A stretch of DNA of 64,000 nucleotides from Dehalococcoidia bacterium (lineage in GTDB: Bacteria; Chloroflexota; Dehalococcoidia; Lucifugimonadales; UBA3495): positions 22,407 through 86,406 of the forward strand of contig JASLXV010000058.1 in assembly GCA_030740155.1 (NCBI GenBank), written 5' to 3'. This document shows positions 787-58,510 of the stretch, piece after piece. Position 1 is the first letter of the stretch. The number at the start of each line of letters is the position of its first letter. Below the pieces are notes generated by a model. The model worked only from the letters and a program-made list of their open reading frames with translations. It had not been told where the DNA came from and did not search any database. Position numbers and translations under genes: made by a program.

Positions 787-1299
787 CTAGAGTTTCCCTG
801 CGATTCTTTCGGATTTGTCTCTGGCGGCGGCGGCGGCCAACGCCCTCTCCACCGCGTCCACCGGATCGGATGCCTGGATAATCGCTCCGTCGACGGGCCG
901 GCCTTCCCCGCTGTGAGTAAGGGGCCAGGTGTTCAGGCCCACGACGGGAATCCCGTCGCCCAGAGCGTGGCCGATCTCCGACAGCGTGCCGAAGGAGCCC
1001 CCGACGGCGATGACCGCTCGCCCGCTGTGGACCACGATGACGTTCCGCGAGTACCCCATGCGGGTGATGATGGGTATGTCCACGTAGGAATTGGCCTCCG
1101 ATGGGGAGCCGCCGGGCAGGATGCCGATGGTGAGCCCTCCCTCCAGCTTGGCGCCGCGGCAGACCGCTTCCATCACCCCCGAAAGTCCGCCGCAGACCAC
1201 CGTGGCCCCTCGTTTGGCCAACTCCCGGCCCACGGCCTCGGCCAGGACTTTGAGTTCCTCGGTCGCCCCTTCACTACTTCCAATAACCGATATGATCAT
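787..1299 (-). CDS. TIGR00725/LOG-like (SLOG Rossmann-fold) family protein
   Basis: 170-aa ORF with [12 protein letters not shown] and [11 protein letters not shown] glycine-rich motifs typical of the LOG/TIGR00725 fold. Its stop codon (787-789) abuts the eno GTG at 785. Confidence 0.7.
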
Positions 1300-1410
1300 C
1301 TAACGAAACACCTCGGTACTGTACGAAATAACCCGAGTATGGGACTGGGCATTATAGCAGCTTGCCCCTATATCCTGCCGCCAACACCCGCGGAGTTCGG
1401 AGGTTGCGGA

Positions 1411-1510
1411 GCCACAGAGGCACAGAGGCACAGAGATACGGAAATAAGGACGGTGTCACGGAGTCACAAAGAAAAACCTCTGTGTCTCTGTGTCTCCGTG
1501 CCTCTGTGGC
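1411..1510. repeat. Palindromic intergenic element, 'CACAGAGGCACAGAG' family, copy 1
   Basis: Left arm gccacagaggcacagaggcacagagatacgg is the inverted complement of right arm cctctgtgtctctgtgtctccgtgcctctgtggc. Related copies lie at 3040-3104 and 22626-22697. Confidence 0.8.
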
Positions 1511-1521
1511 TAACCCTCGTT

Positions 1522-3024
1522 CTAGGTTCCCGGCAAAATAGCCCGGCTCGCCGCCTCGATAGGATCGAGAATCGGGGCCGGGTAAACCCCGATCCAGACC
1601 ATCGCTACCACCCCGATGGCCAGCACCGCCAACAGCAACACCGGGGGCTTCCCGGCCAGGCCGGTCAGGCCCTGGGAAACCTCGTCCGCCTCGGGCTCCG
1701 GGCCGGCTTCGATGTACATCTGCCGTATCACCTGGAGGTAGTAGTAGAGGGAAATCAGGCTGGTGAAGATGGCGAGGCCGGCCAGCCAGAGGAACCCATC
1801 GTTGGCCACGGCGGTAAACAGGTAGAACTTGATGGCGAACCCGGCGAAGATGGGAAGGCCGCTCAGGGAAAACAGCCCCATGGCGATGGCGGCGGCCAGG
1901 AAGGGTTGACGGTCGGCCAGACCGGCGAAGTCGGCGATCAGCTCCTTCCCGGTCATGTTGAAGAAAGCGATCAGTCCGGCAAATACCACCAGGTTGGTGA
2001 TCGAATAGCCCACCAGGTAGAGCATGATGCCGTTGGAGGCCAGGGCCGAGTCCGAAGACAGGGCGGCGAAGCCCGCCAGGATGAACCCGGCGTGCCCGAT
2101 GCTGGAGTAGGCCATCATCCGCTTGATGTTCTTCTGGGCCAGGGCCACCAGGTTGCCCACGAGCATTGTCACCGCCGACAGCACCGCCAGGATAATCTGC
2201 CACTGGTCCCAGCGGTCGGTTGCGGGTACGAACCCCTCGGCGGTCAGGCGCAGCACCAGGGCAAATGCCGCCGCCTTGGACCCGATGGTCAGATAGGCGG
2301 TGACGGGGTAGGGCGCGCCCTCGTACACGTCAGGGGCCCACATGTGGAAGGGTACCGCTCCCACTTTGAAGCCCAGCCCCACCACGATCAGCGCCACGCC
2401 GACCCACAACGCCGGGCTAACCTCGGTGGCGGCTCCCAGGGCGATGCTGATGTCTTCAAACCGGGTTACCCCGAGGGTGCTGTACACCATGCTGATGCCG
2501 TACAGCATGATGGCCGAGGAGAAGGCGCCGATTATGATGTACTTGAGGCCGGCCTCGTTGGACTTGGCGTTGCCTCGGGCATAGGAGGCCAGCACGTACA
2601 GGCTGAAGCTGAGCAGCTCCAGAGAGATGTAAGCAGTCAAAAGCTCCCGGGACTGGGCCATCAGGTTCATGCCCAGGATCGAGAAGAGGAGCAGCCCGTA
2701 AAACTCTCCGGGGTTGTCGAGGAATTTCCTCACGTGCTCGATGGAGCTGAGTATGATGAAAACGCCCATGGCCAGGAAGAAGACCTTGAAGAACAAGGAG
2801 TAGTCGTCGATGGCCAGCAGCCCGCCGTAGAGCGATTCATCCTCGCCCCACAGCATCACCACCGAAACGCCGATCACGCCCAGAAGCCCGGCGATGGACA
2901 GCCAGGCCAGCAACTCTTTGCGATCGTCCGGCAGCACCAGATCGATGGCGAAGACCGCGAAAGCCAGGGCCGCCAACACGAACTCCGGCGTCAGCAGGTG
3001 CAGATTTTCGGTCAGGTCAGGCAT
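1522..3024 (-). CDS. nuoN: NADH-quinone oxidoreductase subunit N (antiporter-like)
   Basis: 500-aa polytopic membrane ORF with an Mrp/Nuo antiporter-like signature (AYSSIGHAGFIL). It is the last gene of the collinear nuoA-N array. Confidence 0.85.
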   Translation of the reverse strand: MPDLTENLHLLTPEFVLAALAFAVFAIDLVLPDDRKELLAWLSIAGLLGVIGVSVVMLWGEDESLYGGLLAIDDYSLFFKVFFLAMGVFIILSSIEHVRKFLDNPGEFYGLLLFSILGMNLMAQSRELLTAYISLELLSFSLYVLASYARGNAKSNEAGLKYIIIGAFSSAIMLYGISMVYSTLGVTRFEDISIALGAATEVSPALWVGVALIVVGLGFKVGAVPFHMWAPDVYEGAPYPVTAYLTIGSKAAAFALVLRLTAEGFVPATDRWDQWQIILAVLSAVTMLVGNLVALAQKNIKRMMAYSSIGHAGFILAGFAALSSDSALASNGIMLYLVGYSITNLVVFAGLIAFFNMTGKELIADFAGLADRQPFLAAAIAMGLFSLSGLPIFAGFAIKFYLFTAVANDGFLWLAGLAIFTSLISLYYYLQVIRQMYIEAGPEPEADEVSQGLTGLAGKPPVLLLAVLAIGVVAMVWIGVYPAPILDPIEAASRAILPGT

Positions 3025-3039
3025 TGGTTCTCGCTAGTT

Positions 3040-3104
3040 GACACAGAGGCATAGAGGACACAGAGAACAAACATAAGTCTCTGTGTCCTCAGTGTCTCCG
3101 TGGC
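3040..3104. repeat. Palindromic intergenic element, 'CACAGAG' family, copy 2 (between nuoM and nuoN)
   Basis: gacacagaggcatagaggacacagagaac ... gtctctgtgtcctcagtgtctccgtggc. Same arm sequence family as 1411-1510. Confidence 0.75.
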
Positions 3105-12577: not shown

Positions 12578-12654
12578 ACTGGGGTGAAGTGCCACACCTT
12601 CGGGGTTGGGTACCCGGCAGTCAACAGGAAATCCGGGGCCGAGACCTTGGAACA

Positions 12655-12683
12655 AATATACATCGGCTGGGGTTTAGTGTCAA
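12655..12683 (-). promoter_or_regulatory. Candidate sigma-70-type promoter of the nuo operon
   Basis: The minus strand reads TTGACA-ctaaaccccagccgatg(17 nt)-TATATT. It sits between the stop of the upstream gene (12721) and the nuoA ATG (12577). Confidence 0.55.
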
Positions 12684-12720
12684 TTCAAAATGCCCGGCAT
12701 CCACGCTCGCCACGGCCCGG

Positions 12721-13851
12721 TCAAGCCCTGGAACGCAGGGCAGTGGAAGAGATGTCCGCCCGGAACCGGGATTCTGGGATGCCCTGGAAAAGGGGGCCGA
12801 AAACCGAGGGGATCCCCACGTCTTCCAGGGTGCGAAAAGCGCCGCCCTCCTCCCGGCCAGCCACCAGAAAGCGGCACCCGGCAACCGATATCCGGGCCAG
12901 CGCCAGAAGCATTTCAGACGCGTCTCCGCCGTAATATCGGGGCGCCACCAGCCGTACCGCCGTATCCCAGCCGATGACGAAGGTGCACCCCGGAAACAGG
13001 TCGGCCTTCTTCCGAAAAATCTCTGCCCGGGTCAGCACAACCCTCTCCCCGCCGGTAAATTGCTTCAGCCGCCGCCTGACTTCGGCCTCGGCGAGGGGCG
13101 GTTTGTCCACGTTGGTGACCGACAGCTCGAAGGCCACGTCGGCGCCCAGGATTTCGGCGGCGGTGCGAGCCAACTCCCGATGGCCCCGGTGCAACGGCCC
13201 GAAGGACCCCGACAGCACGGCCGCGGGAGCTGCTCCGTCAACGGTTATCCGGCCGTCGGGTTCCAGGGTCACGGTATCGGCTTCGCCGGACAGCAGACGC
13301 TTCAGGGGATCGGGGTGGCCCGCGTGGCGGTGGGTGAGGTCGTCGGCGTCGCTCAAGCCCGGGAGGCCCGATTCGACCCCGCAGGCCTCCGCCAGAGCGT
13401 GGATCAGCAGTTGGCTCACCAGTTCTTCCTCGCCGGTCCGGTCCCGGTGGCTCTTGGCCAGGCGGAGGTTGTAGGAAGCCGCTCCGGATTCGTCCCAGGT
13501 GGCGATATAGCAGCGGTGGGCGCCCCGTTTCGGCCGGTCGGTGGCGATGGTGGCGGTGCAGGCCAGGCCAATAACCGGAGGATCACCTTCCCTGAGGCGC
13601 ATCCCACGCCGGAAGGCGGCTCGGGCCATGGCTCGGGCGGCTTCCGGGGACACGAATTGGTCCGGCTCACCCCCGAGAAGGTCGATCATCGAAAGCCGCC
13701 CGTAGGGCACCACCACCTCCAGGACGGTGCGGGATGCTCCGGCAACGCCCAAGAGCCAGGCAACCGCCTGGCTGCCCGCGCCGGAGACGGCTAGTACCGC
13801 CTGCCCCGGCGAATCATGGATCCTGCGGATCACGTCTTCGACGGCACTCAT
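12721..13851 (-). CDS. Fusion protein: degenerate CinA/PncC-like N-terminal domain plus NadD/NMNAT-type nucleotidyltransferase C-terminal domain
   Basis: The C-terminal half carries GSFGPLHRGH, the (H/T)xGH nucleotidyltransferase motif, and a terminal ISSTALR (ISSTxxR motif). The N-terminal half (AVSGAGSQAVAWLLGVAGASRTVLEVVVPYG...IGLACTATIATDRPKRG) resembles the CinA C-terminal fold. Start set at ATG 13851 (MSAVEDV...), because the upstream part of the ORF-track version overlaps the neighbouring gene. Confidence 0.55.
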   Translation of the reverse strand: MSAVEDVIRRIHDSPGQAVLAVSGAGSQAVAWLLGVAGASRTVLEVVVPYGRLSMIDLLGGEPDQFVSPEAARAMARAAFRRGMRLREGDPPVIGLACTATIATDRPKRGAHRCYIATWDESGAASYNLRLAKSHRDRTGEEELVSQLLIHALAEACGVESGLPGLSDADDLTHRHAGHPDPLKRLLSGEADTVTLEPDGRITVDGAAPAAVLSGSFGPLHRGHRELARTAAEILGADVAFELSVTNVDKPPLAEAEVRRRLKQFTGGERVVLTRAEIFRKKADLFPGCTFVIGWDTAVRLVAPRYYGGDASEMLLALARISVAGCRFLVAGREEGGAFRTLEDVGIPSVFGPLFQGIPESRFRADISSTALRSRA

Positions 13852-13954
13852 CTCCGAACGTGCTCCGATGGCCGGAGCGCCGGGCCGGCGATTGAGCCGG
13901 AGGCTGGCGGGCGCACGGAGAGTAAGGGTCGAACTGGGCGTGGTTTCGCGGCAA

Positions 13955-14545
13955 TCAATGGGGCTGGCCGCCCGGCTGCCAGGGGGTGTAATCAATCTCG
14001 CCCATCCGGGACATGGAGTGCTGCATCTCTTTGCCAATCTTCAGCATCCAGGCCGCCATCACCTGAGGAGGCAACCGGCGGGCCGCGTCTCGCCACCATA
14101 GGGGCTCGCCCTCGGTGACGGTGTCGCCCTCGATCACCTCACCCAGGAAACAGGTCATGTCGCCGGCGTCCATGGCGTTGACCACCCGGCAGTCCAGATA
14201 CCCCCAGCAGTCCTGGAGGACCGGGCTGCCCGATGATTTCAGATCGTACGCCACCTTGGATAGCTTGTCCTGGTCCCGGCCCGATACCAGACCAAATCCG
14301 GTGATCAGATCGAGTTGGTCCTGGCGGAGAAAGTTCACCGCGAAGGCCCCGCTGCCGCAGATCAGGCCGTGGCTGTAGTTCCGTTTGTATATCTGCACGA
14401 TCACCCGGGGCATGCTGGGCACGATGGACGCGGCGCCGATGGCCACCGCGATCTGGCCGTTGGGTTTCCCCTGCCACTGGCTGGTCACCACGGCAATGGG
14501 AGACCACAGGTGGCCCATCAGGCGTGTAATGCGGCTATGGTCCAT
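13955..14545 (-). CDS. Flavin reductase family protein (FMN-binding split barrel)
   Basis: 196-aa ORF. SPIAVVTSQWQGKPNGQIAVAIGAASIVP...FAVNFL matches the flavin reductase-like domain pattern. Confidence 0.7.
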   Translation of the reverse strand: MDHSRITRLMGHLWSPIAVVTSQWQGKPNGQIAVAIGAASIVPSMPRVIVQIYKRNYSHGLICGSGAFAVNFLRQDQLDLITGFGLVSGRDQDKLSKVAYDLKSSGSPVLQDCWGYLDCRVVNAMDAGDMTCFLGEVIEGDTVTEGEPLWWRDAARRLPPQVMAAWMLKIGKEMQHSMSRMGEIDYTPWQPGGQPH

Positions 14546-19138: not shown

Positions 19139-19618
19139 ATGGCCAAAGCCGAATACAAGTTCCGAACGCAACTTCGAGTACGCTGGGGGGAGTGCGACGC
19201 TCAGGGGATCGCTTTTAACGGGTCCTATATGAGCTACCTGGAAGAGGGGCAGGCGGCGTACTTCCGAAACCTGGGGTTCAGCATCTACCGGATCGCCCGG
19301 CGGGGCTACTTCGACAGCGCGGTGGTCAGAACCGTCCTGGAATTCAAGGCCCCGGCTCGCGTCGAAGACATTTTGGACCTCTACGTCCGCGTGAGCCACA
19401 TCGGCAACACCAGCCTGCACCTGGATATCGAGGTATATCCCGAGGACTCCGACCGGCTGACGAGCACGTTGCAGGCGGTGTACGTGGGCTTCCACGCGGA
19501 GACGGTTACCACCCGCCCGGTGCCCGGCGAAATTCGTGAGTTGGTGAACCATTTCGAGGCGACCGGCGAGGTGCTGCCTTTGGAACGCTTTCCCCAACTG
19601 GCCGAAGCGGCCCGTTAA
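19139..19618 (+). CDS. Acyl-CoA thioesterase (4HBT/YbgC-like hotdog fold)
   Basis: 159-aa ORF. LRVRWGECDAQGIAFNGSYMSYLEEG matches the 4HBT thioesterase N-terminal motif. Confidence 0.75.
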   Translation: MAKAEYKFRTQLRVRWGECDAQGIAFNGSYMSYLEEGQAAYFRNLGFSIYRIARRGYFDSAVVRTVLEFKAPARVEDILDLYVRVSHIGNTSLHLDIEVYPEDSDRLTSTLQAVYVGFHAETVTTRPVPGEIRELVNHFEATGEVLPLERFPQLAEAAR

Positions 19619-19672
19619 CGCCGGATTCGAGGTTCACTGGGCCGGGGAAATAGCGGGCCGCCGGGCCCTCGG

Positions 19673-19701
19673 TTGCCTGTACCCGGCTTTCCCCTTATTA
19701 T
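19673..19701 (+). promoter_or_regulatory. Candidate promoter upstream of the tandem crotonase genes
   Basis: TTGCCT-gtacccggctttcccct(17 nt)-TATTAT, about 105 nt upstream of ATG 19807. Confidence 0.35.
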
Positions 19702-19806
19702 AGTACCGGCGAGCCGCCCCTCACTTTGACGGGGCAGGTCCGGACGAATGCGTACGATCTCCTCTGGGTCGGCCCAGAAGAGGAAAACATCACGGAGGTT
19801 CAGTAG

Positions 19807-20667
19807 ATGGAATACAAACATGTTCTGTACGAAAAGGATGGCCCGGTCGTCAGGATCACGATGAACCGGCCGGAAAAACTGAACGTAATAGACTTCCCCG
19901 GCCAGGGCGGCATCCTCGACAATTTCTACGCCGCCCTTGGGGAGGCCGAGGAAGATGACGAAGTAAAAGTGGTGGTGATTCGAGGCGCCGGCCGGTCCTT
20001 CTGCGCGGGGCATGACCTGGAGGTCGTGGGTTTCATCTATGGCATCGGCACCGGCCAGCCTAACGAGCGCCGGGCCAGCCAGCGCATCCGCCTCAAGGTG
20101 GACCGGAAGTGGATGGAGAACCACCTGAAGCTGCTCACCTTCCCCAAGATCACCATCGCCCAGGTCCAGGGCCACTGCATCGGCGAGGGCGCGCTCATGA
20201 TGGAGTTTTGCGACCTTGCCGTGGTCGCCGAAGACGCCCAGATCGCCCATGCCGAGCAGCGTCTTGGCTTCTCCGGTAGCGGGTTGAACCTGCTTCCCCT
20301 GTACCTCACCGTTGGGTACAAGCGGGCCAGGGAGCTGCTGCTCCGGGGCCGCGCCATCAGCGGCACGGAGGCCGTCGCCATGGGCCTGGCCAACCGGGCC
20401 GTTCCCCTGGACCAGTTGGAAGCAACGGTGCAGGAGTATATCGACGATATGGCCCGGCTTCCGTTGGACGGCATCGCCATCGGCAAGGCCACCAACCACT
20501 GGATCCTCGACACGTTGGGCGCCACTTCCGGGCTGATCCAGGGCTACATCAGCCACACCATGTTCACCAACCTGCGCTTCGAGCCGGGGGAGTACAACTT
20601 CTTCCGGGAGCGGCGCGGCGCCGGCACCCGCGAAGCCTTCCACGCCCGCGACGACCGGTACGAGTAG
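19807..20667 (+). CDS. Enoyl-CoA hydratase/isomerase (crotonase) family protein, paralog 1
   Basis: 286 aa. ITMNRPEKLNV...VVVIRGAGRSFCAGHDL is the crotonase oxyanion-hole region. Confidence 0.85.
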   Translation: MEYKHVLYEKDGPVVRITMNRPEKLNVIDFPGQGGILDNFYAALGEAEEDDEVKVVVIRGAGRSFCAGHDLEVVGFIYGIGTGQPNERRASQRIRLKVDRKWMENHLKLLTFPKITIAQVQGHCIGEGALMMEFCDLAVVAEDAQIAHAEQRLGFSGSGLNLLPLYLTVGYKRARELLLRGRAISGTEAVAMGLANRAVPLDQLEATVQEYIDDMARLPLDGIAIGKATNHWILDTLGATSGLIQGYISHTMFTNLRFEPGEYNFFRERRGAGTREAFHARDDRYE

Positions 20668-20798
20668 GCGATCAGCCGCCGCCATCGGGCTGGTGGCCGC
20701 GGCGCCGTGTGCCTGTCCGGAATGGAGGCTCGGTAAATGGCGAATACCCTCCCTCGGCATGGGCTAAGGGAGAGAAAATCTATGGAGGTTACCGGGTA

Positions 20799-30421: not shown

Positions 30422-32026
30422 ATGGTGACCGCATTCGAGCTTGTTCCGAAAGGGTACTTCCCAAGAGAGCTTCCCCCTCCATTCACAACCAAACCGTTCG
30501 GCAATTTAACTAAACAATGGCGAGGCCAGACGCCACCAGGATTCGCATTAGATTTCCGTAGACCAATAATCACTAGACATGCAATTCATAATCTGACCAG
30601 ATTTGGATTAGTGAGACGCCAGCTTTCGATTCCAAACCCCGTGAACTTCTATCACATTGCATCTTTATTGGAAATGAATTGGAGTGGATTGCTGCCCAAT
30701 TGGAACAGCTCGAAGATATCATTGAGCAAACCGAGCGTTGATCCAGCAGCGGCTCGTGCGGTCATTCCTAGCCATCCGTGGAGCAGCCACCCGCTACATC
30801 GAGCGGCCTTAAGAGCGACATCAAAATATATCCTGAAATCAGATATTGATGGGTTCTACCCGTCTGTATATACCCACAGCATCCCTTGGGCTATTCATAC
30901 CAAACCCGCTGCTAAAGCAAATAGGAAACCTAATGCTCTTTTGGGTAATCAAATCGATCGTTGCCTCCAATACGCGCAAGATCAACAAACCAAGGGCATC
31001 CCAATTAGCCCCGATACATCACTTGTTATTGCGGAGATCCTCCTTGGAAGAGCTGACGTGGAGCTTGCCAAACTTATCCAGGTCATCGGATTTAGATCTT
31101 ACGATGACTATGAACTCGGATTTAGATCCCACGCTGATGCAGAAAACGGTCTTGCCGCCCTCCAAGGAGTGCTAGCGGAATACGAGTTGCAGATCAATAC
31201 CTCCAAGACTAAGATCATCGAACTCCCAGCATATCTTGATCCGCCATGGGGAACTGAACTCGGAGCACTCTCTATCGGCACGCGGTCACAATATCGCGAC
31301 CTTTTACGCTATGTCGATAGAGCATTTGAACTATTTCGCCAGCATCCCGGAGCTGATGTGTTGAAATATTCTATTAGCCGACTGAATTCGATAGTAATTG
31401 CAAGTTCTGAATGGGGGTTCTTTCAGGATTTCTTATTTCAATGTTCCATGGTTGAGCCTGCTACGTTGCATTTGGTCATCGATCATCTACATAGATACGA
31501 AGCAGCGGGCTATCCAATTGATAAGGTCAAGCTAGAAACGGTATTGAACACCCTGATGAGTTCCCGTGGCCCTTTGGGTTGTGGTAATGAAGTCGCCTGG
31601 GCCTTATGGGGCGCCATCCTTTTCAATATACCTGTTGACCAAATGTCCGCTAAAGTTCTCGAGAAGATGATTGACCCGGTGGTAGCCTTGCTTGCATTAG
31701 ACGCGAAGAATAAGAATCTGATCTCCAATCAAGTTACGTTCAGTCAATGGCTTGCCAACATGAGCCAAGCCGAGCTTGAAGGAAATCAGTGGCTATTCGC
31801 ATACGAAGTTAATGTTAAGGGCTGGTTGCCCCTGCCTGGTGGTACCGACTATGTGTTAGCCGATCCCCGGTTTGCTTTGCTAAAACAAAACGGTGTTCAT
31901 TTCTACGATGATTCACTTGTGTCTGCCCACGGGCCGACCAATCCAATATCGGTGAGAATCCCACGAAACCAGCCGCAAAACATTGACGATAGTCTTGTCC
32001 CGTCTTGGGACTCCAATTATTATTGA
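30422..32026 (+). CDS. Reverse transcriptase of the Abi/UG (defence-associated RT, AbiK/Abi-P2-like) type with a helical C-terminal domain
   Basis: 534 aa. RT motifs by eye: RRQLSIPNPVNFY (motifs 1/2, aa 65-77); ILKSDIDGFYPSVYTHSIPW (motif A, aa 137-156); KGIPISPDTSLVIAEILL (motif B, aa 191-208); FRSYDDYELG (motif C, YDD at nt 31100-31108); ELQINTSKTKI (motif E). About 260 aa of helical repeat-like sequence follows. G+C is far below the flanks: hand counts of 45% and 35% on two 60-nt lines, against 73% on a line of the neighbouring gene. Confidence 0.8.
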   Translation: MVTAFELVPKGYFPRELPPPFTTKPFGNLTKQWRGQTPPGFALDFRRPIITRHAIHNLTRFGLVRRQLSIPNPVNFYHIASLLEMNWSGLLPNWNSSKISLSKPSVDPAAARAVIPSHPWSSHPLHRAALRATSKYILKSDIDGFYPSVYTHSIPWAIHTKPAAKANRKPNALLGNQIDRCLQYAQDQQTKGIPISPDTSLVIAEILLGRADVELAKLIQVIGFRSYDDYELGFRSHADAENGLAALQGVLAEYELQINTSKTKIIELPAYLDPPWGTELGALSIGTRSQYRDLLRYVDRAFELFRQHPGADVLKYSISRLNSIVIASSEWGFFQDFLFQCSMVEPATLHLVIDHLHRYEAAGYPIDKVKLETVLNTLMSSRGPLGCGNEVAWALWGAILFNIPVDQMSAKVLEKMIDPVVALLALDAKNKNLISNQVTFSQWLANMSQAELEGNQWLFAYEVNVKGWLPLPGGTDYVLADPRFALLKQNGVHFYDDSLVSAHGPTNPISVRIPRNQPQNIDDSLVPSWDSNYY

Positions 32027-49719: not shown

Positions 49720-50079
49720 TCATCCGGTACCCTCCAGTGCGGCCTCGATTGACCTCAGGTTCGCTCCCACCACCAACCGCCCGCCGATGCGGGCCAGGGG
49801 CCGGCGGACCAACCGGGGCTCCTCGAGAATCAGCGCGAGCATCTCCTCCTCGGACAGCTCCCGGCCTGCCATGCCCTTCTGCTTCAAGCTGGGGCTGCGC
49901 CAGGCGAATAGCTGAGAGAAACCCACTTCAGAGGCCAGCTCCCGGACCTCACCCTCGGTGAACGGTTCCTTGAAGAAGTCCCGCTCGTCCAGCTCCAGGC
50001 CTTTTTGTAAGAGCAACTCTCTCACTTTGCGGCAGGACGATCAACGGGGCCACCAGTAGAACGCTACTTTATTACTCAA
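49720..50079 (-). CDS. ArsC/Spx-family thioredoxin-fold protein with in-frame TGA (50041-50043) in a U-x-x-C motif; candidate selenoprotein
   Basis: From TTG 50079 (GAGG 6 nt upstream) it reads M/L-SNKVAFYWWPR-TGA-SSCRKVRELLLQKGLELDERDFF.... ArsC/Spx proteins carry 'xxYxxPxCxxCRKAxxxL' at exactly this position. The ORF-track ORF starts after the TGA and lacks this motif. Confidence 0.6.
50007..50025 (-). promoter_or_regulatory. SECIS-like hairpin 15 nt downstream of the TGA
   Basis: The mRNA reads GUGAGAG-AGUUG-CUCUUAC: 7-bp stem (one G-U pair) with a 5-nt loop containing GU. Confidence 0.4.
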
Positions 50080-53048: not shown

Positions 53049-54065
53049 TCAAGCTTCTATGCGGTATACACGAGCGGCGGTGTCGTGGAACATGGCGGCG
53101 CGCTCCGTGGCCGAGTAGCCCTTCGACAGCCGTTTGAAGGCGTTGAATACCACGTTGTATGAGTAAGCCACTTTGTCGACCGGGAAGTTGCTTTCGAACA
53201 TACACCGGTCGGGCCCGAACTGTTCGATGCAGTAGTTCAGGAGCGGCGACATCGTTCCGGCCAGCTCCTCCGACCCCACGGGGACCTCCCGCTTAGTCCA
53301 GTCGAAGCCGTACCGGGCTTGGCCAATGCCGCCCACCTTCATGACGATGTTGGGGCATTTGGCCACGGCGGCCACGCCCCGTCTCCACTCGGGAAACACC
53401 TCGTCGTCGCGGTTGGCGTAGGGGCCTATCCGGTGCAGTCCGCCGCTATGGTTCAGCACGATGGTGAGTTCGGGTATGGCGTTGGCGAAATCGGCCAACT
53501 CGCCCAGTTGGGGGAAATACATGAAGCCTTCCAGCAGGAACCCCATCTCCGCCAAGACCCGCGCGCCGGCCCGGTAGCCATCGGTGGCCAGGACGCCCTG
53601 TATTTCCCGGTCCGGCACCTCTGGGCTCGGGTCCCAGCCCGTCGAGTGGCGGATGCCGCGAAACCGATTGGGGCTGGCAGCCTGGAGTGCCTCAAGGACC
53701 GGGCGCACTCCGTCGCCCAGCTTCAAGTCGGCCCTGCCAATGATGGCGACGGCGGCGCGGGCCGGTCCGTGAGCCCCGGTGGCGAATTCATCGGCCAGTT
53801 TCTGCACGAACTCCACCTCGCCCACCGAGTGCAACTCCTCGGGGCCATCGATGCGGTACTCGGACCGGGCCTCGATGAATACGGTGGAACGGACGTTATG
53901 GCCGCTGTTGATGTCGGCCGCCAGCTCCGCCGGCAGGTATTGCTGATAGGCCGCCGGCTCGGGCCGGTGCACCCAGAAGTGGTGATGGGGGTCGCAGATC
54001 GGAATCTCCGGCTCCAGGGTGGGCTCTTGGGTTAGAGCCAGCCAGTCATTGCCTACGAGTGGCAT
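53049..54065 (-). CDS. Amidohydrolase-2 (TIM-barrel metal-dependent hydrolase) family protein
   Basis: 338 aa. ICDPHHHFW N-terminal metal motif, IVLNHSGG, and a C-terminal FESNFPVDK. Confidence 0.75.
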   Translation of the reverse strand: MPLVGNDWLALTQEPTLEPEIPICDPHHHFWVHRPEPAAYQQYLPAELAADINSGHNVRSTVFIEARSEYRIDGPEELHSVGEVEFVQKLADEFATGAHGPARAAVAIIGRADLKLGDGVRPVLEALQAASPNRFRGIRHSTGWDPSPEVPDREIQGVLATDGYRAGARVLAEMGFLLEGFMYFPQLGELADFANAIPELTIVLNHSGGLHRIGPYANRDDEVFPEWRRGVAAVAKCPNIVMKVGGIGQARYGFDWTKREVPVGSEELAGTMSPLLNYCIEQFGPDRCMFESNFPVDKVAYSYNVVFNAFKRLSKGYSATERAAMFHDTAARVYRIEA

Positions 54066-56724: not shown

Positions 56725-56848
56725 GGCGCGGGAATCGATGCCGGGTCTTTTCAACCTTCTCCGTGCCGCAACCAAGATGCCGGTTCCCAACATTGACAGA
56801 AAAATCGCGGGTCGGTAGGCTGGGAGCACCCGGCAAAGGAGGGCAGCC

Positions 56849-58510
56849 ATGTTTACCCTGGAAGTACTCAATCCCGTCGCTCAGAGCGAGGGCGAAATCA
56901 AGGTGAGCGGAACCGCGCGCCGGCCCCGCTCCCTGGACGGCCTGACCCTGGGCCTGCTGTGGAACTCGAAGCGCGGTGGTGAAATTGCGCTGGTGAAGGC
57001 CGGCGAGCTGATCAGCAACCGGTTCAAAGACGTCAAGGTGATTCGCTACGACGGCTCCATGCCCTGCGATAAGGAACTGATGGAGAGAGCCAAGCAGGAG
57101 TGCGATGTATTCATCGGCTCCACCGGAGATTGAGGCTCTTGCACGTCGTGGATTGTCCACGACCTGGTCGTCATGGAGAAGGCGGGCAAGCCCAGCGTCG
57201 GCATCGTTTCCGTCGGCTTCGAGCGGGACGCCATGGCCACCGCCCGTGCCTTCGGCCTGCCCCAGTTCCGCTATGCGTTGTTCCCGGAGGTCCTCACCGG
57301 ACTGACTCCCGAACGGATCAAGCGGGACACGGCCGACGCGGTGGACCGGATGGTGGAAGTCCTCACCACCGACGCCGGCGGCAACGGCAACACCACCGCG
57401 GCGAAGCCCAAGGCCACCGACCGGCTGAAGATAGACGCAACGGATTCCTACGATGCCTTCGAGAAGATGAACCGGCAGTTCCTGGAGCTTGAGTGGAGCG
57501 ACGGCTTCCCCATCATACCCGCCACGCCGGAGAAGGTGGAGCGGATGCTGAAAGGCGCCACCCGAAGCGCCGAAGACGTGGTAACGGTGCTGGAGCCCGG
57601 GAACGGCCTGGCGACCGTGGAAAAGATCGCCATCAACGCGGTGATGGCCGGCTGTGAACCCGCCCACCTGCCGATTCTCATCGCCGCCTGCGAAGCTTAT
57701 ACAGGTCTGGGCGACCGGGTCCGAGCCATGGCCATGTCCACCAGTACCCACGCGCCGCTCATGGTCATCAACGGGCCCATCGGGAGGGAGATAGGCATCA
57801 ATTCCAAGCGCTGTGCCATGGGGCCGGGCGCCCAGTCACGCCACAACATAGTCCTGGGCCGGGCGCTGCGGCTCATCATGATGAACGTTGGACACTGCTA
57901 CCCCGGACACATGGACCTGGATACTATTGGGACGGCCCGCAAGTTCGGAATGTGTGTCGCGGAAAATGAGGAGGAGACCCCTTGGCAGCCTCTCCACGTG
58001 GAGAAGGGGTTTGATCAGGAAGAAAGCACCGTAACCCTCTTCGCCACCAGGGATGAGATAGATGTAAACGACCTGGATAACTGGACGCCGGAGGGAGTGC
58101 TCAACAGCATGGCTTTCTTCAGCGCCATCCCCGGTGGTGAATATCTGGACCAGGGTCACCCCGGATGGGACCCGTATTACAGGCTCTTGCTCATGTTCGG
58201 CCCGGAGCACGCCAACATTTGCGGCACGGCCGGTTGGTCGAAGAACGCGGTGCGGGAGTACGTCTACAACCGTTGCCGGACCAGCGCCCGGCGGCTGCTA
58301 AACAAGGTGCTTTGCACTCCGGATAAGATCAGGCCGCAGTGGGAATGGCTATTGAAGCTGTCAGAGTGGGAGCAGGACCAGATAATGTTGCCGGTAATGG
58401 GAAGCGCCAGTAACATTGAGATGGTTGTCGTGGGCGGCCCCGCCGGGAAGAACCTGATCTACCGGTGTATCGCGCCTCCCTCCACCGCCATCATAAAGGA
58501 CCGGGCGTAG
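56849..58510 (+). CDS. 'UGSC'-motif protein with in-frame TGA (57131-57133) fused to a ~400-aa uncharacterised domain; candidate selenoprotein
   Basis: ORF-track ORFs 56849-57133 and 57173-58510 are in the same frame, separated only by the TGA and 13 sense codons: ...DVFIGSTGD-TGA-GSCTSWIVHDLVVMEKAGKPSVGIV.... AAGGAGGG precedes ATG 56849, whereas no Shine-Dalgarno sequence precedes ATG 57173. The U/C-G-S-C motif matches my recollection of the RefSeq 'UGSC family (seleno)protein'. Confidence 0.55.
57145..57163 (+). promoter_or_regulatory. SECIS-like hairpin 11 nt downstream of the TGA
   Basis: GUCGUGGA-UUG-UCCACGAC: perfect 8-bp stem (or 7 bp with an AUUGU loop). The loop contains GU. Confidence 0.45.

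Follow-up and report, generated by a model that had tools for sequence, protein, structure and literature searches.

The 64,000-nucleotide stretch analyzed here (the window; contig JASLXV010000058.1 of the Dehalococcoidia bacterium assembly GCA_030740155.1, positions 22,407 to 86,406; GC content 62.5%) carries two annotated open reading frames (ORFs) at 56849-58510 of the plus strand, which almost certainly constitute one selenocysteine (Sec)-containing polypeptide, as judged from the comparison of homologous sequences. The predicted product comprises 553 residues and includes an N-terminal UGSC domain, in which the in-frame UGA codon is assigned to Sec95, and a conserved C-terminal domain (C-domain). 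The best overall explanation of the data, which we consider likely, is that Sec95 is incorporated by read-through dependent on a Sec insertion sequence (SECIS) and that the resulting U-x-x-C motif forms a redox module serving the C-domain.

Gene Layout

The ORFs 56849-57133 (94 amino acids) and 57173-58510 (445 amino acids) share one frame. The TGA codon 57131-57133 is followed by 13 sense codons (GSCTSWIVHDLVV) and the in-frame ATG 57173, and the frame then remains open until the TAG codon at 58508-58510. The Shine-Dalgarno sequence AAGGAGGG is located at 56836-56843, upstream of the first ATG, and no Shine-Dalgarno-like sequence was seen upstream of ATG 57173 when the sequence was read. The original prediction, made from the DNA letters alone, had described this arrangement, and all of its coordinates, as well as the presence of a ribosome-binding site before the first start codon only, proved right. 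In public assemblies containing the identical gene, it is called as two pieces of 94 and 445 amino acids, both of which match the Pfam family PF24696. The identical ORF with the same TGA was found on at least 22 contigs; therefore, the TGA is not a read error. The features of the locus are as follows.

56836..56843, plus strand: Shine-Dalgarno sequence, with a 5-nt spacer before the true ATG 56849-56851, read from the sequence.
56849..58510, plus strand: predicted single selenoprotein coding sequence of 553 residues with Sec as residue 95, based on in-frame translation, PF24696, tblastn, and Cys homologues.
56861..57367, plus strand: UGSC domain, residues 5-173, alpha/beta, with U-G-S-C opening a helix, based on PF24696, NF041046, and the AlphaFold2 (AF2) model of homologue P0103.
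57131..57133, plus strand: UGA codon, assigned to Sec95 from the aligned codons of homologues.
57140..57142, plus strand: codon of Cys98, the second residue of the U-x-x-C pair, from the sequence; Cys in nearly all homologues.
57145..57163, plus strand: predicted bacterial SECIS hairpin with an 8-bp stem and a UUG loop (or 7 bp and AUUGU), based on minimum free energy (MFE) and covariation.
57173..57175, plus strand: codon of the internal Met109, the wrong start of the annotated 445-residue ORF; no Shine-Dalgarno sequence, and the family model and alignments extend upstream.
57368..57445, plus strand: variable interdomain linker, residues 174-199, with weak conservation in the alignments and a dip of the predicted local distance difference test (pLDDT) to 71 in the P0103 equivalent.
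57446..58507, plus strand: conserved C-domain, residues 200-553, enzyme-like by its homologue family, conservation, and AF2 model.
57653..57655, plus strand: codon of Cys269 in the motif AVMAGC, 93% conserved in the domain family.
57953..57955, plus strand: codon of Cys369 in the motif FxMCxAENE, 85% conserved in the domain family.

One Protein Read through the UGA Codon

For the family-model searches, Cys was written at the TGA of the joined 553-residue query. Residues 5-173 matched profile positions 1-171 of 172 of the Pfam UGSC model PF24696 (120.2 bits with a cut-off of 25, E 1.4e-34), and residues 31-173 matched positions 2-147 of 147 of NCBIfam NF041046 (104.1 bits); both matches cross residue 95 without a break. 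The RefSeq name 'UGSC family (seleno)protein', cited in the original prediction, exists and belongs to NF041046. Since the curated cut-off of this model (125 bits) was not reached, the protein is, by the NCBI rule, a relative of the NF041046 equivalog and not a member.

The homologue sample included 102 loci from genomes and metagenomes, among them Dehalococcoidia, other Chloroflexota, Acidobacteriota, Deltaproteobacteria, and Actinomycetota, and the joined protein was aligned to the locus DNA using tblastn. The codon under residue 95 was determined in 108 distinct homologous genes and was TGA in 90, TGC or TGT in 14, and ATG, GAC, or GTG in the other four. A Cys/Sec column, proposed earlier as a check, is thus present, with TGA or Cys in 104 of the 108 genes. 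In about 100 genes, the alignments pass the TGA in frame, including the 13 intervening codons. The U/C-G-S-C motif occurs at the family position as U-G-S-C, and its fourth residue is Cys in nearly all homologues. Full-length Cys homologues (P0082, P0103, P0109, P0114, and P0116) are single polypeptides of 553-571 amino acids; the aligned motif of P0103 reads TADCGACSSW, with Cys at the Sec position. Most homologues of the C-terminal part are about 445 amino acids long and are split as at this locus. As to whether Cys homologues occur as one polypeptide or as adjacent genes, both arrangements exist, the single forms of 553-571 amino acids and adjacent split pairs. TGA serves as an ordinary stop in 9 of the 25 confident window genes, which speaks against reassignment of the genetic code. 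The proposal of a single selenoprotein of about 553 amino acids was borne out by the family models spanning the TGA, the uninterrupted Cys forms, the codons at residue 95, and the conserved hairpin described below.

Other residues were observed at the Sec position in a few homologues. Met (ADMGSC) was found in two metagenome-assembled genomes (MAGs) of Oscillospiraceae (L016, position 6289, and L017, position 1612), and Asp replaced Sec/Cys (DGSS) at position 5277 of L049; the same redox chemistry is not available to such Met- or Asp-bearing homologues. Among three tandem paralogues of a Chloroflexi MAG, one (L002, 8242-8253) has TGA at both the Sec and Cys positions (GD-U-G-T-U-TSW). This single observation could represent a U-x-x-U motif, an error, or a decaying copy.

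The SECIS Hairpin

A perfect 8-bp hairpin had been noticed 11 nt past the TGA, and it is indeed present at 57145-57163. Its arms are GUCGUGGA (57145-57152) and UCCACGAC (57156-57163), enclosing the loop UUG (57153-57155), and it covers the codons of (T)-S-W-I-V-H-D. The distance from the UGA to the apical loop is 19 nt (57134-57152), and the 19-nt hairpin alone has an MFE of -11.1 kcal/mol. The original prediction likened the spacing to that of the minimal SECIS of Escherichia coli fdhF, for which 11 nt after the UGA is indeed stated in the literature (PMC8659212). As in fdhF, the hairpin lies within the coding region and has a small loop with G-U. The bSECIS model (PMC13188914, Fig. 2) allows a UGA-to-loop distance of 16-37 nt and sets an upper limit of -7.5 kcal/mol on the MFE, and the window hairpin agrees with this model in loop size (3-9 nt), upper stem (4-16 bp), spacing, and energy.

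Covariation was analyzed in 68 distinct TGA genes sharing the S/T-W-x-x-H-D codons. The stem was 90.1% paired in these genes, compared with 20-47% when the partner strand was slid. There were 15 double-sided stem changes, and the observed covariation was reached in none of 500 shuffles. Two stem pairs are made solely of synonymous sites, namely the third positions of the Ser and His codons (Ser3-His3) and of the Thr and Asp codons (Thr3-Asp3). The former, at 57148 and 57160 in the window, was GC in 52 genes, GU in 10, and AU in 5, with one mismatch, and TCA occurred only with CAT; the latter was GC in 45, AU in 6, and GU in 2, with 15 mismatches. The Ser3-His3 pair could form in 67 of 68 Sec genes versus 8 of 13 Cys genes. 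The two forms further diverged in their loop codons: where Ser follows Trp, its codon was AGT in all 29 Sec genes and AGC in all four Cys genes, and where Leu follows Trp, CTT prevailed among the Sec genes (14 of 18) and CTG among the Cys genes (5 of 8). This Sec- and Cys-specific choice indicates that the loop G-U is kept only where Sec is encoded. Acidobacterial homologues (CTKFLVYN) are devoid of the S-W..H-D codons and have another, longer hairpin at the same distance from the UGA, with a compensatory change from CUCG/CGAG to CUCA/UGAG. No comparable hairpin was seen in the two Met-bearing homologues (L016 and L017). Taken as a comparative result, the behavior of hairpin 57145-57163 as a conserved SECIS is well supported.

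Probable Selenocysteine Decoding in the Organism

A second gene with an in-frame TGA was found in the window on the minus strand (49720-50067). It belongs to the ArsC/Spx family and is annotated as 101 amino acids, and the models TIGR01617 and NF041106 'ArsC family (seleno)protein' match it weakly. Its TGA (50041-50043) falls exactly at the N-terminal catalytic Cys (FYWWPR-U-SSC-RKV), and a hairpin at 50007-50025 with the loop AGUUG fits the bSECIS model (z-score -2.3). This gene is probably a second misannotated selenoprotein. The position of its TGA at the catalytic Cys, together with the hairpin, lends indirect support to Sec decoding at the organism level, which we infer for this bacterium.

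Structure of the UGSC Domain

The full-length AF2 model is that of P0103, a Cys homologue sharing 42% identity with the window protein. The mean pLDDT was 92.7 and the predicted template modeling score (pTM) 0.92, the latter suggesting a fixed arrangement of the domains. In this model, Cys107, the equivalent of Sec95, lies between strand 99-103 and helix 108-123, which it opens; redox-active CxxC pairs usually occupy such a position. In a Foldseek search of the full-length P0103 model against the PDB, the N-terminal domain matched flavodoxin-like, SIS, TIR, and PurE-type proteins with TM scores of about 0.45-0.5 relative to the target; the flavodoxin-like matches (about 150-190 columns) appeared only when the UGSC domain was included. 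A thioredoxin-like fold was suggested for UGSC in 2008 (PMC2398784); in contrast, the proteins matched by the AF2 model are flavodoxin-like alpha/beta proteins, and no thioredoxin-fold protein was among the top 50 Foldseek matches of P0103.

The C-Terminal Domain Family

The search with the C-terminal part yielded more than 6726 homologues, and the family forms 4376 clusters at 50% identity (E up to 0.001). There is no Pfam or NCBIfam model for this domain, and the family-profile search of the PDB gave a chance match only (E 0.9). The AF2 model of the window C-domain had a pLDDT of 93.6 and a pTM of 0.92. In the Foldseek search against the PDB, no fold relative was found, the best match being the class I fumarate hydratase alpha subunit with a TM score of 0.25-0.30 and a root mean square deviation of 15 A. 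Kinship with Fe-S hydro-lyases of this class was rejected because this TM score is below the 0.5 taken to mark a common fold and because two Cys are well conserved, compared with the three needed for a cluster. Toblerone-fold hydrolases scored below the fumarate hydratase match, and kinship with them was not accepted either, given the low TM score and the lack of a sequence match.

Near-invariant positions in 266 proteins include D218, G219, T226, C269 (93%), N308-G-P, N333, R338 (100%), D356, K365, C369 (85%), E372 (100%), W379, and H383, and this conservation pattern is enzyme-like in sequence terms. Cys322 occurs in 58% of the fused forms versus 11% of the stand-alone forms; its role as a Sec-specific partner was considered but is not supported, since many Sec-form loci have Asn or Gly there. 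Six proteins of 709-741 amino acids (P0176, P0179, P0190, P0196, P0217, and P0248) consist of two tandem C-domains and lack UGSC altogether; Cys369 is replaced by Val, Leu, or Ile in the copy that was aligned.

Pairing of UGSC with the C-Domain

In most loci, UGSC is fused to the N-terminus of the C-domain, the Sec fusions having about 445 amino acids after the TGA and the Cys fusions about 550-580 amino acids in total. Stand-alone C-domains (about 340-375 amino acids) and tandem double C-domains (about 710-740 amino acids) also occur. UGSC and C-domain genes are split and adjacent at seven loci (L010, L015, L018, L061, L100, L102, and L021). The reverse order, from C-domain to UGSC, is found in P0238, P0246, and P0273, where the ORF ends at profile position 92, corresponding to the Sec codon. 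In other proteins, the C-domain is fused to AhpC-TSA/Redoxin (P0206 and P0265) or to the ferredoxin-thioredoxin reductase (FTR) catalytic chain FeThRed_B (P0264) instead of UGSC. These modules differ from UGSC in fold and share no sequence similarity with it, and the domain architecture alone suggests that they do an equivalent job.

In searches with the UGSC half, the word-indexed search reached 36 proteins, and the stand-alone UGSC proteins came from the profile search. The entries named 'UGSC family (seleno)protein' by NCBI are stand-alone proteins of about 172-230 amino acids. A C-domain homologue (26-37% identity) adjoins the stand-alone UGSC gene in six of the seven loci examined, and the seventh locus lies at a contig edge. 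The adjoining gene often overlaps the UGSC gene or lies 3 nt from it, and the six paired loci include Natronorubrum, Sphingobium baderi, and MAGs of Pseudomonadota. According to these data, it is highly probable that UGSC and the C-domain work together, and the window gene appears as the fused form of a two-gene system ranging from haloarchaea to Proteobacteria. The original prediction had expected the fusion to offer a functional hint for the UGSC family. The recurrent adjacency and the fusion of the C-domain to thiol-redox modules elsewhere make this hint stronger than proposed.

The family is strongly paralogous, and two or three tandem copies were often observed (L002, L003, L005, L006, L011, L013, L016, L080, L081, and L089), with the fused copies sometimes followed by a stand-alone C-domain gene. 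At least 10 paralogues occur in one Chloroflexi MAG (HYX92 locus tags). On the contig of the window, about 10 kb past its 3' end (L021, 19948-21338), a 374-amino-acid C-domain gene without a Pfam match is followed by a separate UGSC gene.

Proposed Mechanism and Alternative Explanations

Under the likely explanation given at the outset, translation would start at ATG 56849, hairpin 57145-57163 would act as the SECIS for UGA 57131-57133, and SelB with Sec-tRNA(Sec) would insert Sec95. Translation would then run on to the TAG ending at 58510, giving one 553-residue protein, and this part of the explanation is well supported. The U-x-x-C pair may alternate between the selenol/thiol and selenenylsulfide states, and reducing equivalents may pass to, or come from, the active site of the C-domain. 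Where present, Cys269 and Cys369 would be the likely points of contact with the U-x-x-C pair. Three observations underlie the reading of UGSC as a redox module: its motif opens a helix, known disulfide-exchange modules can take its place, and the two parts are tightly coupled in genomes. The chances that UGSC acts specifically as a redox relay for the C-domain appear about even.

Several observations weigh against this explanation. The single-sequence fold of a 66-nt stretch is no better than chance (z-score -0.84); the significance of the hairpin comes from the comparison across homologues and not from this fold. A G in the first two apical loop positions is asked for by the bSECIS model (PMC13188914), and the window loop has none there, its G being third in UUG or fourth in AUUGU; the G-U-N loop of 29 relatives satisfies the G rule, and a U-U-G-[U/C] loop is conserved in the subgroup of the window. 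Unlike the fdhF element, the hairpin has no bulged U, and the Rfam scan of the whole window gave no match. The tRNA and Pfam scans revealed no selA, selB, selC, or selD genes and no tRNAs within the 64-kb window; the Pfam scan of 20 large ORFs for SelA, SelB, and SelD detected complex I subunits, a helicase, FtsY, amidohydrolases, and others instead. Some Sec-bearing homologues have Ala at position 269 and Val at position 369, and the two cysteines of the C-domain therefore cannot be obligatory partners. Finally, a survey of 141 neighbors of fused genes, with ORFs chosen mechanically, found no dominant operon partner; the neighbors are heterogeneous and name no substrate.

The strongest alternative is that Sec95 itself is the catalytic nucleophile acting on a substrate held by the C-domain, with the resulting Se-C or Se-X adduct resolved by Cys98. 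Glycine reductase protein B (GrdB) and the proline reductase PrdB are thought to work through such a Sec nucleophile adduct. Direct action of Sec on the substrate would be compatible with the Ala269/Val369 forms, and some Sec homologues devoid of both C-domain cysteines keep U-x-x-C, D218, R338, and E372. In addition, many tandem paralogues adjoin solute-binding proteins, suggesting substrate-specific enzymes, and Table 2 of PMC2398784 assigns PrdB to the same UxxC type of motif. However, no similarity to GrdB/PrdB or the Gly_reductase families was detected (E up to 1), the replacement of UGSC by Redoxin or FeThRed_B fits generic disulfide exchange better, and the Oscillospiraceae forms carry Met at the Sec position. 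This alternative is rather unlikely, though of some weight. Much less probable is the binding of a metal or metalloid (e.g., Hg, As, or Se) by U-x-x-C, with the C-domain handling or transferring the ligand. Reviews describe Sec/Cys pairs as metal ligands in several selenoprotein families, and the conserved D218, D356, E372, E374, H383, and H454 could form a metal site, but no recurrent metal-transport or resistance genes were present among the 141 neighbors, and the alternative fused modules are disulfide-exchange domains.

It is very improbable that the TGA is a true stop separating a 94-residue fragment from a 445-residue protein initiated at ATG 57173. Gene callers split all public copies in this way, TGA does terminate other genes of the window (9 of 25), and no Sec machinery lies within it; nevertheless, a true stop would cut a single Pfam domain in two, leave the second protein with a start lacking a Shine-Dalgarno sequence, and disagree with the in-frame homology through the 13 codons in about 100 genes, the uninterrupted Cys homologues, and a hairpin whose synonymous-site covariation is confined to the TGA forms. 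A pseudogene, or an assembly or sequencing error in a Cys gene, is effectively refuted: TGA differs from TGC or TGT by one nucleotide, yet the same TGA recurs in independent assemblies (L021-L023, at least 22 contigs) and in 90 of the 108 distinct homologues, which come from different phyla, and the downstream frame is highly conserved.

Relation to Known Systems

The UGSC-containing selenoprotein family was listed in 2007-2008 by Zhang and Gladyshev, and no function has been assigned to it since (PMC1976440, PMC2398784, PMC13188914). The window protein resembles this family in its N-terminal 173 residues, which match the model, in having U-G-S-C in place and Cys in some homologues, and in its misannotation due to an in-frame TGA, as in PMC1976440 and PMC2398784. 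It differs from the named stand-alone members in the fusion to a 360-residue domain and in an NF041046 score below the cut-off. A 'UGSC/Unknown_1' fusion was noted in Global Ocean Sampling reads in 2008 (PMC2398784, Fig. S1A). In both cases, UGSC is joined to a conserved domain that also exists alone (here about 340-375 amino acids), and the architecture is very probably the same. The finding is thus a corrected annotation within a known family, for which a fusion was also known. In the literature mentioning UGSC, as searched, we did not find the near-obligate pairing with the C-domain, the alternative redox partners, or codon-level evidence for the SECIS.

By analogy, the protein may be compared with GrdB and PrdB, which likewise carry Sec in a motif of the UxxC type, work with a separate catalytic part specific for the substrate, and have multiple substrate-specific paralogues. 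In contrast to them, it shows no detectable sequence kinship, and its genomic setting in Chloroflexota, Acidobacteriota, Proteobacteria, and haloarchaea is one of catabolism and transport genes. Tentatively, and with less than even probability, UGSC and the C-domain could represent a previously unrecognized two-component selenoenzyme (a thiol enzyme in the Cys forms) responsible for a new Se-dependent reductive step in small-molecule catabolism. The catalytic fold has no solved relative, and the system is widespread; in Chloroflexota and Acidobacteriota, it has expanded into tandem paralogues next to genes of solute uptake. On this reading, it would follow the logic of the glycine and proline reductases, yet among haloarchaea and non-fermentative bacteria of soil, groundwater, and the sea.

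In metagenomes from aquatic habitats, few selenoproteins are as abundant as the UGSC proteins (PMC2398784). Thousands of such genes are split at the Sec codon in public annotation, and their full architecture is hidden. The almost constant fusion or adjacency of UGSC to one 350-residue domain provides a concrete target for the study of its function, and the Cys-type gene pairs in cultivable organisms (Sphingobium baderi LL03 and Natronorubrum) make genetics and biochemistry possible. The C-domain family, with neither a Pfam model nor a solved structural relative, presents gaps worth filling.

Genomic Neighborhood

The 141 neighbors comprised varied catabolic and uptake genes, including TctC, SBP_bac_5, TRAP, flavin adenine dinucleotide (FAD) oxidoreductases, short-chain dehydrogenases/reductases (SDRs), and acyl-CoA enzymes; transport binding proteins, FAD oxidoreductases, SDRs, and Amidohydro_2 occurred four to six times each. 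In the other parts of the window, the ORFs at 913-3054 (plus strand), 12589-14037 (both strands), and 19615-20760 (minus strand), encoding 381-713 amino acids, did not match any Pfam model at E up to 1e-5 and may be either real genes or artifacts of the high GC content. The 534-amino-acid ORF at 30422-32026 (plus strand) showed a weak match to RVT_1 (28.6 bits with a gathering score of 29.6).

An Amidohydro_2 (PF04909) or DUF6282 gene was located within a few kb in most inspected loci (the window, L020, L103, L104, L106, L108, and L110). In the window, it lies at 53049-54065 on the minus strand, and in L106 and L108, it is immediately divergent from the UGSC/C-domain genes. This closeness may reflect a pathway link, but the family is abundant in these genomes.

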